64,000 nt of DNA from a bacterium (GTDB taxonomy: Bacteria > UBA10199 > 2-02-FULL-50-16 > JAJFLM01), in the NCBI GenBank assembly GCA_965216315.1, contig CBDCFN010000016.1, forward strand, positions 2,208,001-2,272,000, written 5' to 3'. Both the position numbers and the translations under genes were made by a program. How positions within the stretch are numbered: position 1 is the stretch's first letter; every line of letters starts with the position of its first letter. This document shows positions 1 to 50,985 of this stretch, piece after piece. The notes below the pieces were generated by a model. It had not been told where the DNA came from. It did no database searches and worked only from the letters and a program-made list of their open reading frames with translations.

Positions 1-1
1 T

Positions 2-403
2 GGCGACAACTGTCCGCTCGTTGTTAACCCGGATCAGGTAGACGACAACGACGACGGCATCGGTGACGCCTGTCAGCTTGATACAGACGGCGACGGGGTA
101 GTTGATGCCCTTGATAGTGACGGTGACGGTGTTGCCGACAAGGACGGTGACGGTAATGACCTCGACAACTGTCCTTTTGATTCCAATCCGATTGAGCCTG
201 GCCAAGAAGCGCAGGGCGATCAAGACGGTGATGGCATCGGGGATGCGTGTGACTCTGACTTTGCGGCTCTCTCCAGTGGTGGCTGTGGCTGCCGTATCGA
301 TGGAGTCAGTGGAAGTCCTGCAGACGTAATCCCATTCTTGATCCTAATGCTGCCGATCGTCATCTTCCGGATGACGCGCAAGAAATCGGAGGCCCAGGCC
401 TAA
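2..403 (+). CDS. 5'-truncated thrombospondin type 3 (TSP3) repeat protein with full MYXO-CTERM-like sorting signal
   Basis: Not in ORF track. Frame 2 reads [24 protein letters not shown]...[12 protein letters not shown]...[11 protein letters not shown]...[25 protein letters not shown] to TAA at 401-403. Confidence 0.85.
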
Positions 404-429
404 GCCAGTATTGGGGGAGGTAACATACG

Positions 430-1326
430 ATGAAGACTTGGATGAAACATATAGTATTAATCGCGGCCTTCGCGCTGATTCCGGCCCTTGCTGTGGCAAT
501 GCCCACAACATACGACGTCGACGGCGATGGCATCGAAAACAACCACGACAATTGTCCTGACCATAGCAATGCAGGTCAAGAGGACAACGACGACGATGGT
601 TTCGGCGATGTCTGTGACGGAGACGACGACAACGACGGCGTCTCCGACCTCGGCGAAGTCGCCCTGGAAACGGATCCGATGGACCCGGACACGGACGATG
701 ATGGTCTGACCGACTTGTTCGATTGTGCCCCGACGGATCCCGAGAAGTACACCTATGAAGACTGCTGGCTCCTCGTGGAAGACACGGGTGGTGACAACGG
801 CGGCAACAATGGTGGCAATAACGGTGGCGGCAACAACGGCGGCGGCAACCCGAACGTCAATCCCGTCGACTCGGACGGCGATGGTTGTTTTGACGATATC
901 GAAATCGGCATGCACACGGATCCATTAGATCCGGATACCGACGGTGACGGCGTTCCTGACTGCAATGACAATTGCCCCATCGTGAACAACCCCGGGCAAG
1001 AAGAGTCAGAACCTACTTCCAACGTCGGTATTGCCTGCGAAGGTGACTACGATGGAGATGGAGTTCCCGACGCAGACGACAATTGCATCTACGATCCGAA
1101 TCCCTTTCAGTTGGATTCCGATATCGATGGTGTCGGTAACGTCTGTGACCCGGATTCGGAAGACTTTGGCGGTCCAGAACCCCTGGTCAATGTTCAAGGT
1201 GGCGGTGGCTCCGGTGGCGGCTGTTCCTTAGCAGCCGAAACCACCACAAACCTGGCTCACCGTGGCACCCTGTTGCTATTAGTCATTTCGTTATTCGGAC
1301 TCGGAATGAGTCGAAAAAAGTTATAA
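430..1326 (+). CDS. Secreted TSP3-repeat Ca-binding surface protein with MYXO-CTERM-like tail
   Basis: GGAGG SD, signal peptide, DxDGDG..DNCP..N.xQ repeats, GGNN linker, C-terminus GGGCSL + hydrophobic helix + RKKL. Confidence 0.85.
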   Translation: MKTWMKHIVLIAAFALIPALAVAMPTTYDVDGDGIENNHDNCPDHSNAGQEDNDDDGFGDVCDGDDDNDGVSDLGEVALETDPMDPDTDDDGLTDLFDCAPTDPEKYTYEDCWLLVEDTGGDNGGNNGGNNGGGNNGGGNPNVNPVDSDGDGCFDDIEIGMHTDPLDPDTDGDGVPDCNDNCPIVNNPGQEESEPTSNVGIACEGDYDGDGVPDADDNCIYDPNPFQLDSDIDGVGNVCDPDSEDFGGPEPLVNVQGGGGSGGGCSLAAETTTNLAHRGTLLLLVISLFGLGMSRKKL

Positions 1327-46788: not shown

Positions 46789-48020
46789 TGCTACACCTAC
46801 CTGATCCATTTGCCCGCGTTCTCCAATCCTACGTCAAGGCAAGCTATTACAAAAATACCCGCAAGGCCGACTTTGCCAAACGCGCTTTTACCGAGGGAGA
46901 TTATCGTTTTTTTATGAAGGGTGTTGCTCAATTGAGCGTCTACTTCACGGCCGACCGGGCGAACCTCCCCAAAAATTACTTCAATCAAAAAGAGCTGCGC
47001 TCGGGCTATCTGCTCTATTTTTTACCCATCAATGCGTTGAAAATAGCGGCCTTATTGAAACAAATCCCTCCTGATTTTTTCAAGTCTCCCCGTTCCGTCC
47101 TGGATATCGGAAGTGGTCCTGGCACCGGAGCGATCGGAACTCTACTCCATTTGGGCGCGGGAGAACCAAAACAGCGCCTTCACATCACATTGCTCGATCA
47201 AAACAAACACATCATGACGGATGGTGCCAATCTGATCCGCAGTATGGTCGACGCAAAACTTTGTGCAAAGCCGGAACAACTCAATATGATTCACTGTGAC
47301 CTCGCACGAGACCTCAATCAAAAACTCCCGCGTCAACAACAATACGATCTGGTCCTTATGGCCAACGTCCTCAACGAAATCCGTGACCTGAATCGGCGCG
47401 CCAAGCTAATCAACCAACTTGTTCAAAAACACCTGACACCGGATGGCCGCCTTATCATCGTTGAACCCGCCCTCCGGCGCCAAACTCGCGAGCTCATGGA
47501 ATTACGCGACATGATCGCAGACCGTGAAATCGCCTTTATCGATGCACCCTGCCTGCATCAAGAGGCCTGTCCGATGTTCGCGCATAATACGCGTGATTGG
47601 TGCCACATGTATTGGGAATGGGAACGCCCAGAGTTTATTGAGCATTTGGATGATCTGGTGGGGATACACAAAGATTACTTAAAGGCGTCGTATCTGATCT
47701 TATCAGCTCTCCCCTCCTTACAAAGGAGGGGATTAAGGGGAGGTCAAACTCGACCCCTCCCTCACCCTCCCCTTAGTAAGGGGAGGGAACATATATGGCG
47801 TGTTGTCAGCGGACCGCTAAATTCTAAAGGTAAAAGCGAGCGCCTTCTCTGCGGCCCAAGTGGCCTTCCCCATTTACACCGCCTCATGCGCCTCGACCGT
47901 AACCGTTCCAAGACCAACCAAGACTTCGACCGGGCGATGCGCGGGGACCTTGTTGTCACGGAAGCAAAGGATAAATTGGGAAAACAGGATTCGTTTCGGC
48001 TTAGCGGCGACGGCCTTTAG
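46788..48020 (+). CDS. Rsm22/METTL17-family SAM-dependent methyltransferase
   Basis: VLDIGSGPGTG, ANVLNE, IVEPA, APCLHQEACP..WCH. Confidence 0.8.
   Translation: MLHLPDPFARVLQSYVKASYYKNTRKADFAKRAFTEGDYRFFMKGVAQLSVYFTADRANLPKNYFNQKELRSGYLLYFLPINALKIAALLKQIPPDFFKSPRSVLDIGSGPGTGAIGTLLHLGAGEPKQRLHITLLDQNKHIMTDGANLIRSMVDAKLCAKPEQLNMIHCDLARDLNQKLPRQQQYDLVLMANVLNEIRDLNRRAKLINQLVQKHLTPDGRLIIVEPALRRQTRELMELRDMIADREIAFIDAPCLHQEACPMFAHNTRDWCHMYWEWERPEFIEHLDDLVGIHKDYLKASYLILSALPSLQRRGLRGGQTRPLPHPPLSKGREHIWRVVSGPLNSKGKSERLLCGPSGLPHLHRLMRLDRNRSKTNQDFDRAMRGDLVVTEAKDKLGKQDSFRLSGDGL
47709..47789. repeat. Inverted pair of family A repeats (copies 5 and 6), in frame in the methyltransferase
   Basis: CTCCCCTCCTTACAAAGGAGGGGATTAAGGGGAGGT...ACCCCTCCCTCACCCTCCCCTTAGTAAGGGGAGGGAA = LPSLQRRGLRGGQTRPLPHPPLSKGRE. 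Confidence 0.85.
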
Positions 48021-50985
48021 TTACTTTCTCGGTCTTTTCCGTCACTTCTTCCTTTTCACCGACTTTTTGGACTTCGACGATGTGGAATTCGACACGACGG
48101 TTCTTCGCCATGCCTTCGGCAGTTTGGTTCGTCGCAATCGGTTGTCTTTCGCCACGCCCTTCGGAGGTCAGGCGTTCCGGTTCAACGCCAAAACCAATAA
48201 TCGCCTCTTTGACCTCACGCGCACGATTATTGGAAAGATTGATATTGTACTGATCCGAACCACGATGATCCGTGTGTCCCTGAATGACAACATGGCGAAT
48301 CCACGGTTGGTCGAGCATCAAGGCCGCAACCGCTTTAACCACCGGCTGCGACTCGGGCAGTATCTTCCAGCGCGCGGTCTCGAAATGAATCGGTTCGAGG
48401 ATCACGATCTGACCGCCTTCGAGCCGGACGTAGCTCTTATATGTCACCCGTCTCTCTGTCACCGATGCCGGACGCGGCGCCCGCTTCTTAATCGGCGCGG
48501 CCACATAAGAGAGCATCGCGAAGATGCGGTAATCAGGCGCCCCGTAACCATTGGTAATGCCTAAACCCGCGCCGACAGTGGCGTTAAGGCGACTTTCCAT
48601 AAAGCCCTTACGAATGCCAAACAACCATTCCAGCGGCGACCGATTGGCACGCACCCCGTTAAACGCAACCGAACCGTTTAGTTCGGTCAGACCATGGAGA
48701 TCCCAGGGCTGCCAAATGGGACGACGATAACCAATCCCGTAAAGAAATTCCTGGCCTATGGTCAGGTTAAAGAGATTCTCTTTTTCTCTGAAGCGCATGC
48801 CGATATTGGCCACCACCTTATTCTTCCAGAATTCGACATCATAAACACCACGGACCCCCCCGGTCACACTGGTATCTCCGGTATATTTTGCCGTACTCCC
48901 GGATGGCAAAGTCACAAAAGGAATAACGGCCGCCCCCATCGTCACATTATCCGTTTCCACATCTCCGTGGGTCCACAAGCGGAACTTAGCGGCCAAACCG
49001 ATATCACCGAACGCCGCGGTCGAACTTCCGGACGATGTTCCCACCGGCTCAACCTTTACATTCGGAAAAAAAGGTACGGAAATTCCCAGTTCCACCCAGT
49101 CGGCGAGACCATAGGCCCCGGTCAACGTCATATTAACGTGGTGGTCGACTAGAGAATCAAGCCGCGCCCCGGAACTTACCAAACCCAACTCCAGGGGGTT
49201 TTTTGAAAAGCTAAGACCTAAGCCAAGTGACCAGGCGCGCTTTTCTAACATGCGTGATTCATAGAGATTAACCAGGCCGAGGTTATCGAAGGCAGGACGA
49301 AACAATTCGCCATTGAGCGCATAGGAGGAACATGGAAGCGTCAGACTAACAAGAATAAAAAAAAACGCGAAGTACGGACGCCGGCGCCGACCTCTGAACA
49401 GTGCTAAGGCCATCGCCGCGATTGCCAACAGCAACCAATTGATCCAGGTCGATCGCCCTTTTAACTGAGATGCGTCAATCAACTGGCATGAAGCAAGGCC
49501 GCTCCCCTGAGCCTGAACGGCATCACCGCTGTTTGGAATCGCAATATCGGGATCGACACCATCACCCGGGGTCAGCGGATCATTGTCTATTCCATCGGGA
49601 ATGCCATCATCATCGGAATCCGGATTGGTCGGGTCCGTGCCAATGTCTGTCTCCTCTTCATCATCAAGGCCATCATCATCGGAATCCGGATCACGATAAT
49701 CAGGAATCCCGTCGCCATCCGTGTCGACCGGATCGGTATCCAGATCCGCATCGCCGGCCTCGGTGGCATCCGGGATCGTGTCATCATCGGTATCCAGATC
49801 ACGCACATCCGGAGTGCCGTCGCCATCCGTATCCGTTTCCTCATCGGAGGTGAGACAATCGATCGCATCGAACTCATCCGGGGTAATGCTCAGGTCGGCA
49901 TTGGTATCAAAATTGACAGTATCCGCCTCGTGAATGTCTCGTATCGTATCATTATCGCTATCAATATCGAGATAGTTTGGCGTCCCATCGCTATCCGTAT
50001 CGACGTTGGCGAACCCATCGTTGACATCAATGTCTCCATCGCCATCCGTATCCAGACCTGAAGCCGCCGCCTCTGCAGCACTAATAAAACAATCGCCATC
50101 CGTATCGTGATCGTCGAGATCCCGCTCCGTGATATCGGGAATCCCATCGTTGTCACTATCAGGATCCGAATTGTTGGGGATGTCATCGCCGTCATCATCA
50201 AAAAAGTCTTGTACATCGAGGGTAATACGAATGTCTTCGTCCCCAATCCCGCTATCCGCGAAACTACCCGCCTTAAAGATAATATCCATCGTTTCGTCCG
50301 GATCATTGAGGTCGAGAGTGGAAAAACCAGGATAAGTCGAAAAACCGATCATACTGAATTCCAAGTGTGGCGCGGCACCACTTGGAGAGGCAAAAACCGC
50401 GCTCCCTGTGGCCGCCGCAATGAGACTCCCGTAATAACCCTCCGAAAATGAAGCGTTAAGGCCGAGATCGGGTAAGGCCACCTCACTCACCCGAAAGCCG
50501 CCCGGAGCGCTCCGAACATCTGTTATCCCGGCTACGGCCTCAGGGGTTGTGCCTGGATCGGCATCAAAATCGAGAACCATGGCAAAAAATTCATCGGTCC
50601 CCAAATCAGCATTATCGGATCCGGCTAAACCGGCAAGAATGGCGCTCGTTCCGCCTGGGTCCCCATCTCCATCGGCATCGCCAAAAGGAATCTGAAAACC
50701 ACCCGCATTGCTTTGTTCATAGGTTTTAATCCCGACATCGACCGTGTCGGTCGTCGCATCATAAATCAGGCAAATTTGTTCGACATCAAAGCCACTGATG
50801 GTTCCGGCCGGAAACGCAACCGGCACGCCGACACTCACATCGTTGGGATCGGTAAAACACGCTTCGGCAGGAAAATCGACTGTCACGTCACCTGTGAACT
50901 CAATCGCGCGCGCGCTAACGGGTAATATTAATAAGATGAGTGCAAGAAAGGTGATTCGCATGAAGCGATGTTTGTTGATCATCAT
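48001..50985 (-). CDS. Two-part protein: acidic DxDxDG-repeat surface module + internal Cys sorting signal + second signal peptide + beta-barrel + OmpA-C domain
   Basis: N signal peptide; DTDGDG repeats; QGSGLASCQLI-TM-RGRRRR-hydrophobic-SYA; amphipathic strands; GHTD..N..LS..RA, NRRVEF. Confidence 0.85.
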   Translation of the reverse strand: MMINKHRFMRITFLALILLILPVSARAIEFTGDVTVDFPAEACFTDPNDVSVGVPVAFPAGTISGFDVEQICLIYDATTDTVDVGIKTYEQSNAGGFQIPFGDADGDGDPGGTSAILAGLAGSDNADLGTDEFFAMVLDFDADPGTTPEAVAGITDVRSAPGGFRVSEVALPDLGLNASFSEGYYGSLIAAATGSAVFASPSGAAPHLEFSMIGFSTYPGFSTLDLNDPDETMDIIFKAGSFADSGIGDEDIRITLDVQDFFDDDGDDIPNNSDPDSDNDGIPDITERDLDDHDTDGDCFISAAEAAASGLDTDGDGDIDVNDGFANVDTDSDGTPNYLDIDSDNDTIRDIHEADTVNFDTNADLSITPDEFDAIDCLTSDEETDTDGDGTPDVRDLDTDDDTIPDATEAGDADLDTDPVDTDGDGIPDYRDPDSDDDGLDDEEETDIGTDPTNPDSDDDGIPDGIDNDPLTPGDGVDPDIAIPNSGDAVQAQGSGLASCQLIDASQLKGRSTWINWLLLAIAAMALALFRGRRRRPYFAFFFILVSLTLPCSSYALNGELFRPAFDNLGLVNLYESRMLEKRAWSLGLGLSFSKNPLELGLVSSGARLDSLVDHHVNMTLTGAYGLADWVELGISVPFFPNVKVEPVGTSSGSSTAAFGDIGLAAKFRLWTHGDVETDNVTMGAAVIPFVTLPSGSTAKYTGDTSVTGGVRGVYDVEFWKNKVVANIGMRFREKENLFNLTIGQEFLYGIGYRRPIWQPWDLHGLTELNGSVAFNGVRANRSPLEWLFGIRKGFMESRLNATVGAGLGITNGYGAPDYRIFAMLSYVAAPIKKRAPRPASVTERRVTYKSYVRLEGGQIVILEPIHFETARWKILPESQPVVKAVAALMLDQPWIRHVVIQGHTDHRGSDQYNINLSNNRAREVKEAIIGFGVEPERLTSEGRGERQPIATNQTAEGMAKNRRVEFHIVEVQKVGEKEEVTEKTEKVTKGRRR

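Follow-up and report, generated by a model that had tools for sequence, protein, structure and literature searches.

A conserved in-frame fusion of a Cys-tagged surface module and a TraB-like barrel-OmpA protein that is probably cut into two envelope proteins

As far as the available text of two earlier papers goes, TraA and TraB of Myxococcus xanthus are separate partner proteins, encoded head to tail by open reading frames (ORFs) that overlap by four bases (PMC3325183), and the MYXO-CTERM tag of TraA is cleaved by MrtX both in M. xanthus and in Escherichia coli (PMC11980579). The authors of the latter report (Guo, Haft and Wall, mBio 2025) read another M. xanthus gene, MXAN_5598, as a fusion of traA- and traB-like genes and propose that the N-terminal part of its product is processed and anchored. 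Here we describe a single ORF, 48001..50985 on the minus strand, in a 64,000-nt stretch of a bacterial genome (positions 2,208,001 to 2,272,000 of contig CBDCFN010000016.1; the whole stretch is called the window below). The ORF is a real and conserved envelope polyprotein gene. It is probably an in-frame fusion of a pair of the TraA/TraB kind, in which a surface module (A, residues 27-500) and a TraB-like barrel-OmpA protein (B, residues 557-994) form one precursor that is cut in the inner membrane. Its features are as follows.

48001..50985, minus strand: whole ORF, the A-B precursor (surface module plus TraB-like barrel-OmpA), 994 codons plus stop.
50908..50985, minus strand: N-terminal signal peptide, residues 1-26 (...VSARA/IEFTG), placed by its hydrophobic peak and the N-termini of relatives.
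50200..50907, minus strand: N-module, residues 27-262, a predicted beta-sandwich with a GDADGDGDPG loop (AlphaFold2 (AF2) model and fold matches).
49546..50199, minus strand: Asp-rich repeats of calcium-binding type, thrombospondin type 3-like, residues 263-480 (composition).
49477..49515, minus strand: Cys motif QAQGSGLASCQLI, residues 491-503, proposed site of lipidation and cleavage (G494 and C500 invariant).
49396..49446, minus strand: first hydrophobic helix WINWLLLAIAAMALALF, residues 514-530, proposed stop-transfer anchor (hydropathy; AF2 helix).
49378..49395, minus strand: basic loop RGRRRR, residues 531-536, proposed to be cytoplasmic and to serve as tag tail and n-region (sequence and relatives).
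49318..49377, minus strand: second hydrophobic segment PYFAFFFILVSLTLPCSSYA, residues 537-556, ending in SYA, the internal signal peptide (alignment with the signal peptides of stand-alone B proteins).
49357..49365, minus strand: run of nine T (T9) in the sense strand, encoding FFF 541-543 (sequence).
Within 48436..49317, minus strand: proposed mature start LNGELFRP, from residue 557 (49294-49317; conserved LN start).
48436..49317, minus strand: TraB-like beta-barrel including the mature start, residues 557-850, about 12 strands (NF033763 and AF2).
48004..48435, minus strand: linker and OmpA-type peptidoglycan-binding domain, residues 851-994 (PF00691).

The sequence strings that the initial annotation had quoted were all found at their places within 48001-50985(-). 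A Kyte-Doolittle scan gives no hydrophobic peaks beyond those of the N-terminal signal peptide and the segments 514-530 and 537-556, three in all, and the AF2 model has helices at 509-529 and 536-548. A charged spacer of 10 residues lies between QAQGSGLASCQLI and the first helix. The internal signal peptide consists of the basic n-region RGRRRR, the core PYFAFFFILVSLTL and then PCSSYA with small residues at -3/-1, and signal peptidase I is predicted to cut between residues 556 and 557, which are separated at window positions 49318 and 49317. At the N-terminus, the alignment shows that a small-x-small site before [IVLT]xFTG closes the signal peptides of relatives; the protein database's own gene call takes Met9 as the start (P0002, 986 aa).

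MXAN_5598 resembles 48001..50985 in its adhesin-type N-terminal part, internal Cys sorting motif, outer-membrane beta-barrel and OmpA domain, and neither this architecture nor the proposal that the N-terminal part is processed is new, since both are printed for MXAN_5598 (available text of PMC11980579). The N-terminal parts of the two proteins appear unrelated, however, and MXAN_5598 lies in a cell-division cluster, whereas 48001..50985 lies between housekeeping genes. A second signal peptide, signal peptidase, split orthologues and a T-run are not discussed for MXAN_5598 in the available text of the same report. The model NF047640 (gliding_AgmC_N) gave no match in the genome, and it gave no match in control genomes either.

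The outer-membrane exchange pair TraA/TraB is similar to the ORF in combining a Cys-tagged surface protein with an OmpA-domain partner, and the initial annotation had correctly described the two as separate partners (available text of PMC3325183). In contrast to this pair, there is one ORF here, A has neither PA14 nor TIGR04201, and B scores 187-200 bits against the 700 of the TraB model. Nothing found here points to outer-membrane exchange or kin recognition. With the MYXO-CTERM/myxosortase system (TIGR03901; MrtX, MrtC and MrtP; available text of 10.1101/2023.06.07.544157 and PMC11980579), the ORF and its genome share an invariant Cys, a helix, an Arg-rich tail and a myxosortase-core protease. 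The motif differs in that it is internal, has a charged spacer of 13 residues between Cys and helix, scores below the cut-off and is followed by a signal peptide. Polyproteins of the flavivirus glycoprotein type carry an anchor and an internal signal sequence as a hairpin, which is cut by signal peptidase on the far side. The hairpin proposed here is similar, but the viral one belongs to the eukaryotic endoplasmic reticulum, and there is no relation by descent.

The architecture, for which the initial annotation had suggested a search, recurs elsewhere. A search of a protein collection (7999 candidates scored) recovered the same single fused ORF in 26 relatives, which are 827-1072 aa long and 33-62% identical, with a query coverage of at least 93% in 24 of the 26. 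In the alignment of the query with these relatives, G494 and C500 are invariant (27/27). Two hydrophobic segments with a loop of 1-13 Lys/Arg and at most one acidic residue are present in 21 of the 27 sequences. Five sequences (P0021, P0023, P0025, P0026 and P0027, the last being L028) have one hydrophobic segment only and form one clade, and P0014 lacks any in the stretch from the Cys motif to the conserved LN start. All 26 relatives with a junction segment carry small residues at -3/-1 before the conserved LN start. The residue identity of the junction helices is not conserved across the 27 sequences; the hydropathy and the loop are kept while the residues vary, as would be expected if selection acted on physical properties. 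The mean column identity is 42%, and both halves are conserved. Logan contigs from four runs (two samples of one study, possibly that from which the genome came) run across the joint and show no difference and no indel. No stop between the halves, which the initial annotation had named as the sign of a false fusion, was found in the contigs of these runs, and the fusion stands at the assembly level. These results confirm that the single-ORF fusion is real and that 48001..50985 is a conserved envelope polyprotein gene.

The initial annotation had also taken the C-terminal half to be TraB-like, and this holds. The TraB model NF033763 (exchanger_TraB) matches the whole protein in two stretches with 186.9 bits and the C-half with 200.3 bits, with a cut-off of 700. 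The barrel alone matches model positions 23-299 (E 1.1e-24, 86.4 bits), and the match begins just beyond signal-peptide length; the OmpA part behind it covers model positions 381-503, so that the order of barrel and then OmpA after a signal peptide is the same as in TraB. Because the barrel alone matches the model, the likeness to TraB does not rest on the OmpA domain, and because the score is far below 700, B is a TraB-like protein and not TraB. PF00691 (OmpA) is the only Pfam family in the C-half (68.6 bits, cut-off 27.2, residues 868-963). The AF2 model built on the 27-sequence alignment has a mean predicted local distance difference test score (pLDDT) of 78.8 and has about 12 strands in the region 585-828, with an OmpA fold behind them and only about 28 residues between the second helix and the barrel. 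Its confidence is low precisely at both proposed cut regions (495-512 and 549-560), with confident domains around them. The best fold match of the barrel in the PDB is FapF (Foldseek E 5e-10, about 280 columns, TM 0.58-0.67 normalised to FapF). FapF is an amyloid-subunit transporter of Pseudomonas (PDB 5o65, 5o67 and 5o68; E 5e-10 to 5e-9) that is like the B barrel in fold; however, the two are 12-15% identical, FapF has no OmpA domain, and a common fold is no proof of transport.

The split forms of the gene identify the second hydrophobic segment. A search with the B-half found 13 stand-alone B orthologues (49-67% identity), each of which has a signal peptide ending in small-x-small before LN. 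In all five distinct split loci (L102, L103, L104, L109 and L098), the B gene begins with an ordinary signal peptide, and the small-x-small site of the split B genes aligns with ...SYA/LNGELF of the fused form. Because the split orthologues carry a signal peptide at this place, the second hydrophobic segment corresponds to the signal peptide of B. The proposal of the initial annotation that the Arg cluster opens a new signal peptide ending in SYA is thereby supported. Orthologues (E <= 1e-84) occur in 10 of the 93 species genomes of the phylum, and some are fused and some are split. In a tree of 44 B-halves, the fused or split label needs eight changes, of which 6-7 are forced by well-supported branches, and FastTree and IQ-TREE agree in this.

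The tripartite anatomy of MYXO-CTERM (TIGR03901) is present at the joint as C500, the helix 514-530 and RGRRRR, although it ends at residue 536 of 994 and is not C-terminal. In the genome (2.96 Mb, 98% complete), at least 18 proteins have a C-terminus in which G-G-C-[SQ]-L is followed, after a spacer of about 8-17 residues, by a helix and a basic tail, and nearly all of them have N-terminal signal peptides. The internal tag resembles these tags in outline (2 of the 18 likewise have Cys-Gln-Leu, and its spacer from Cys to helix counts 13 residues), a resemblance that is statistically unproven. One of 14 C-terminal tails scanned passes JDVT-CTERM. The sole CPBP gene of the genome scores 118.1 bits with the Mrt_core model NF040914 (cut-off 100); it is nearest to MrtP (175.8, cut-off 250) and MrtC (129.3, cut-off 195) and lies below both of these cut-offs. 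A divergent second copy of lgt (103 bits, below the cut-off) stands directly before the CPBP gene with overlapping ends (L015, C16:1903461-1906751), and the housekeeping lgt (157 bits) is about 4 kb from this copy. The lgt paralogue beside the myxosortase gene fits the printed idea of an Lgt-type enzyme that lipidates Cys tags. In addition, the genome encodes a GspD secretin (522 bits, cut-off 351).

The comparison of the N-terminal half with TraA in the initial annotation does not hold, since no PA14 domain and no Cys-rich TIGR04201 repeats were found in residues 1-543 (Pfam and NCBIfam). Pfam gives no family for the N-module (27-262), and among 24 aligned modules it gives GEVED in two and FG-GAP in one. 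The AF2 model of the module has a pLDDT of 91.7. Its nearest folds, at borderline Z, are CBM9 (Z 8.3), Sas6 (7.7), the C-region of glucodextranase (7.6) and BACUNI_03838 (7.2). In a Foldseek search of the module, the best E was 4.8e-3 and no match reached E <= 1e-3; an atlas search returned unnamed clusters only (best 0.89), apart from a lead at 0.81 to Glucodextran_C. The module thus appears nearest to binding modules of the CBM9/glucodextranase-C type, an assignment that is borderline and comes from a predicted structure. The repeats at 263-480 contain 34% Asp and have a high pLDDT, and TSP3_bac matches them in three stretches (E 0.0053, 17 bits), below its cut-off of 25. PF18884 is present in relatives of 48001..50985.

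The following mechanism, which we consider somewhat more probable than not, would account for these features. The N-terminal signal peptide would send A through Sec. The helix 514-530 would halt the transfer while RGRRRR stays cytoplasmic, and the segment 537-556 would re-initiate export as an internal signal peptide, so that the two helices would form a hairpin. A cut by signal peptidase I after SYA would free B, which would go to the outer membrane, and its OmpA domain would bind peptidoglycan. A may be held by the hairpin until Cys500 is lipidated, for which the Lgt paralogue encoded before the myxosortase gene is the candidate enzyme, and the single myxosortase-family protease would then remove the hairpin. 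A would finally reach the cell surface, perhaps through the GspD secretin that the genome encodes or else by way of the FapF-like barrel of B. What has been observed is the anatomy and its conservation, the homology of B, the set of enzymes encoded by the genome and the correspondence of the second segment to the signal peptide of B. By analogy with TraA and MrtX (available text of PMC11980579), we propose the topology, the two cuts, the lipidation and a partnership between A and B. The initial annotation had suggested that one gene product is cut by a sortase-like protease and signal peptidase into two partners, and this mechanism is plausible and partly supported.

Several observations weigh against the mechanism. 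The internal tag scores only 7.4 bits with TIGR03901 (E 5.9, cut-off 20), a second scan gave no match, and a profile of the 18 C-terminal tags of the same genome gives 4.8 bits, for the helix part only. The tags of the genome are themselves distant from MYXO-CTERM: among the 14 C-terminal tails scanned, seven have E < 0.1, the best has 19.4 bits, and all are below 20. The description of the joint as a complete Cys/TM/basic tag therefore stands for the anatomy, the invariant Cys and the presence of a myxosortase-family protease in the genome, and does not stand for the scores, which are below both tag profiles. Gene A of each of the five split loci stops 4-7 residues beyond the invariant Cys, and no frame there encodes a helix. 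The tails read Cys-Ser-Leu-[Ile/Val]-[Arg/His] plus 1-3 residues, and the Cys motif is kept in all five. Because the split A proteins end without a helix, the Cys motif needs no membrane helix, which weakens the helix as an obligatory part of the tag. If the simple topology applied to the one-helix (5/27) and no-helix (1/27) fused forms, B would stay cytoplasmic or the chain would remain uncut. The repeated flips between fused and split states fit a nearly neutral fusion as well as a selected one. The series of two-helix, one-helix, no-helix and split forms is a natural experiment on the roles of the Cys motif, the helix and the internal signal. It also bears on how C-terminal Cys tags become lipidated, a question for which the Lgt paralogue that adjoins the myxosortase gene is relevant.

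Three side observations concern these variant forms. A hidden helix and basic tail of gene A in another frame of the split loci was considered, and none was found. The split tail after the invariant Cys is reminiscent of a CaaX box, and myxosortases have CaaX proteases in their ancestry. The simple topology offers no explanation of how the B-half crosses the inner membrane in the one-helix clade and in P0014.

The same kind of joint is present elsewhere in the genome. With the profile of its own tags, internal tags were found in four other ORFs, each of which runs in frame into a new signal peptide. We also applied a composite rule, which combines small-small-Cys-x-aliphatic, a spacer of 6-20 residues and an uncharged hydrophobic window of 15 residues with a net basic tail, a second hydrophobic stretch with small-x-small and a remainder of 150 residues or more. 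When the helix may contain one N/Q/H, the rule finds six internal joints in the ORFs of the genome, including that of 48001..50985, and no joint in each of 20 residue shuffles. A stricter rule finds five joints and none in shuffles, and it misses 48001..50985 because the first helix holds Asn. A family unrelated to 48001..50985, L116, occurs in 60 of the 93 genomes of the phylum, and 18 of the 20 loci inspected are fused in frame with two helices and small-x-small. These results suggest a reusable joint, made of a sorting-tag helix, a basic loop and a signal peptide, by which one chain may give at least two exported proteins, as in some viruses; the common assumption is that each envelope protein of a bacterium comes from a gene of its own.

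The joined modules differ from ORF to ORF. The L116 protein of this genome (C16:822614-825175, 853 aa) has a GE.GC.L tag, a helix, a basic loop and a signal peptide before a module of about 190 aa with SPQWWS and without a Pfam family, and the family is split in some other loci. L117 (C16:1726212-1728476, 754 aa) joins a small module to a lipoprotein-type signal and seven FG-GAP repeats, and L118 (C16:1082894-1086394, 1166 aa) joins two paralogous beta-helix modules. L010 (C16:2348413-2357406, minus strand, about 76 kb past the end of the window) encodes 2997 aa with four PMP-repeat/TSP3 modules that carry GGGCSL-helix-basic tags; each of its three joints has a canonical Shine-Dalgarno (SD) sequence and an ATG written in Arg codons, yet no stop codon.

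Three other explanations of the locus can be set against the proposed cut precursor. B might be made mainly from an internal start at Met525, with RGRRRR as its n-region, and the read-through A-B chain, arising from the loss of a stop, would then be tolerated as a side product. In seven of eight fused loci, a codon ATG, GTG or TTG lies in frame 26-32 codons before the cut site with a plausible signal peptide, the three joints of L010 keep a canonical SD and ATG, and the frequent flips fit a nearly neutral loss and gain of stops. However, none of the eight loci has an SD-like motif 4-11 bases upstream of the candidate start, codons of this kind are frequent in hydrophobic segments, and no Met keeps a fixed position among the relatives. 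The first helix and basic loop in 21 of 27 fused forms, together with the lack of any helix in split forms, fit the topological need of a single chain and not a lost stop, and fusions by lost stops would resemble the one-helix clade, which is a minority (5/27). We consider this explanation unlikely.

Far less likely still is a chain that stays uncut, either anchored in the inner membrane by its hairpin or, where the helices are missing, arranged as an autotransporter-like passenger and barrel. P0014 implies that at least one relative is a plain passenger-barrel chain, and the nearest fold of the barrel is a polypeptide transporter, FapF. P0014 is a single sequence from a 3.2-kb contig, however. 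The approximately 28 residues from helix to barrel are too short for one chain to have a hairpin in the inner membrane as well as a barrel in the outer membrane, 26 of 26 relatives retain the -3/-1 site, and the split orthologues function as two proteins. An artefact or a dying gene, with two genes joined through a homopolymer error or a recent mutation, would be suggested by the T9 at the joint, a classic site of sequencing and replication errors. The frame is nevertheless kept in 26 relatives from independent assemblies, the contigs of the four runs are identical, and both halves are conserved, which makes this explanation highly improbable. The cut A-B precursor is the preferred reading.

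The T9 run goes together with the fused state. If a T is added to or removed from 49357-49365, both shifted frames reach a stop 6-7 codons from the start of the run. Among eight distinct two-helix fused loci with DNA, seven have an exact T9 (the locus described here, G003, G002, L097, G052, G089 and G064). These seven have 47-68% barrel identity, come from four family codes of the phylum and one metagenome contig, and differ in their flanking codons. With one T fewer, a stop follows 3-7 codons from the start of the run in five of the seven loci and 15 codons in the other two, and with one T more it follows after 3-41 codons. T9 is absent from all five split loci, from the single one-helix fused locus and from G042, a distant fused clade. 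In the split locus L098, FFF is retained but written in mixed codons without a T-run. The genome has 17 A/T runs of nine and none longer, and FFF is written as all-TTT in 5 of 98 cases. The background share of TTT in these genes is 0.36-0.74, and the chance of three TTT codons in all seven loci is about 10^-5.7 given FFF and independence, a figure that overstates the case because the lineages are related.

Nine-base A/T runs are prone to slippage and avoided in genes, and in Thermus thermophilus dnaX an A9 run with a nearby out-of-frame stop yields about 50% of a shorter product (available text of PMC1088944). Like dnaX, 48001..50985 has a run of nine A/T inside the gene and close out-of-frame stops (available text of PMC1088944). 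Slippage is established for dnaX, whereas it is putative here, and the shorter product here would be an exported protein with a sorting tag. As an addition to the cut precursor, T9 might cause programmed slippage of the dnaX type, in which one U is inserted or omitted by RNA polymerase or the ribosome. Messages with a changed frame would give A alone with an ordinary C-terminal tag and in-frame messages would give the A-B precursor, resulting in more A than B. The distribution of T9 between two-helix fused and split loci, the nearby out-of-frame stops, the rarity of such runs and of all-TTT FFF in the genome, and the FFF of the split locus L098 without a T-run are in favor of slippage. On the other side, the contigs contain T9 only, although minority forms are invisible in contigs, and the related lineages inflate the chance figure. 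The run is not fixed in position, since it follows the loop in five loci, lies inside it in G089 and precedes it in G064, and G042 has no run. A replicate in the L116 family failed: an exact T9 is found in 1 of the 18 fused loci, T8 in four others and T7 too, and Phe-rich helices alone would give such runs. We therefore regard slippage as a tentative suggestion that is more doubtful than the cut precursor itself. If T9 causes slippage, the 'equimolar' partners of the initial annotation are doubtful, and the run would be a new use of recoding that sets the stoichiometry of two envelope partners.

Other roles of the run or of its surroundings were examined and rejected. An intrinsic terminator formed by the GC-rich Arg codons and T9 is not indicated, as no consistent hairpin lies beside the run in six loci. 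T9 is not a general mark of such joints, given the count in the L116 family, in which the sole exact T9 belongs to the copy of this genome and lies within the internal signal peptide. A changed genetic code for AGA/AGG does not agree with AGA at the nearly invariant R733.

A joint that works at two levels can also be imagined, in which the tag helix and the internal signal determine the cuts, T9 sets the ratio of A to B, and the split forms undergo CaaX-like processing that is independent of the helix. We consider this combination rather unlikely, slightly more so than slippage by itself. If it is true, a share of messages would stop just behind the tag and the ratio of surface protein to barrel would be set from a single gene, and the bare Cys-x-aliphatic tails of the split forms would point to helix-independent processing by the same protease family.

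Within a limited literature collection, we found no match for a bacterial polyprotein with an internal signal peptide and the outer membrane, and none for TraA/TraB outer membrane exchange together with slippage. Within the limits of this search, the observation that the second segment matches the signal peptides of split orthologues appears to be new. The same appears to be true of the repeated flipping between fused and split forms, of the helix-less end of gene A in the split ones, of joints that link modules other than OmpA partners, and of the association of T9 with the fused state.

The genes that flank 48001..50985 are unrelated housekeeping genes, encoding an Rsm22-like methyltransferase, a zinc ribbon protein, a DEAD-box helicase and a CopD-like membrane protein. 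Cys-tagged proteins are also encoded at the start of the window. One of 811 aa (C16:2205968-2208403) has its end at window 1-403 on the plus strand, a second of 300 aa lies whole within window 424-1326 on the plus strand (C16:2208424-2209326), and a third of 1298 aa is encoded just upstream of the window. The genome also has seven stand-alone TraB-like genes (427-542 aa), several of them beside Cys-tagged genes. Unfused clusters of TraB-like and Cys-tagged genes are located at C15:249450-259061 and C16:761642-767576, the latter in the order tagged, tagged, TraB-like.

The N-module, with FTG..DF and the GDADGDGDPG loop (L029-L081), is found alone at the N-terminus of proteins across many phyla, with records from Chloroflexota, Planctomycetota, Verrucomicrobiota, Saprospiraceae and the archaeal Methanothrix. 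A joint of similar layout is seen in two records from metagenome-assembled genomes of Pseudomonadota (L075 and L077, 2475 and 2913 aa), in which a helix, an Arg loop, a second helix and small-x-small precede an OmpA-type part; the motif at this joint is Gly-rich and without Cys, resembling GlyGly-CTERM.

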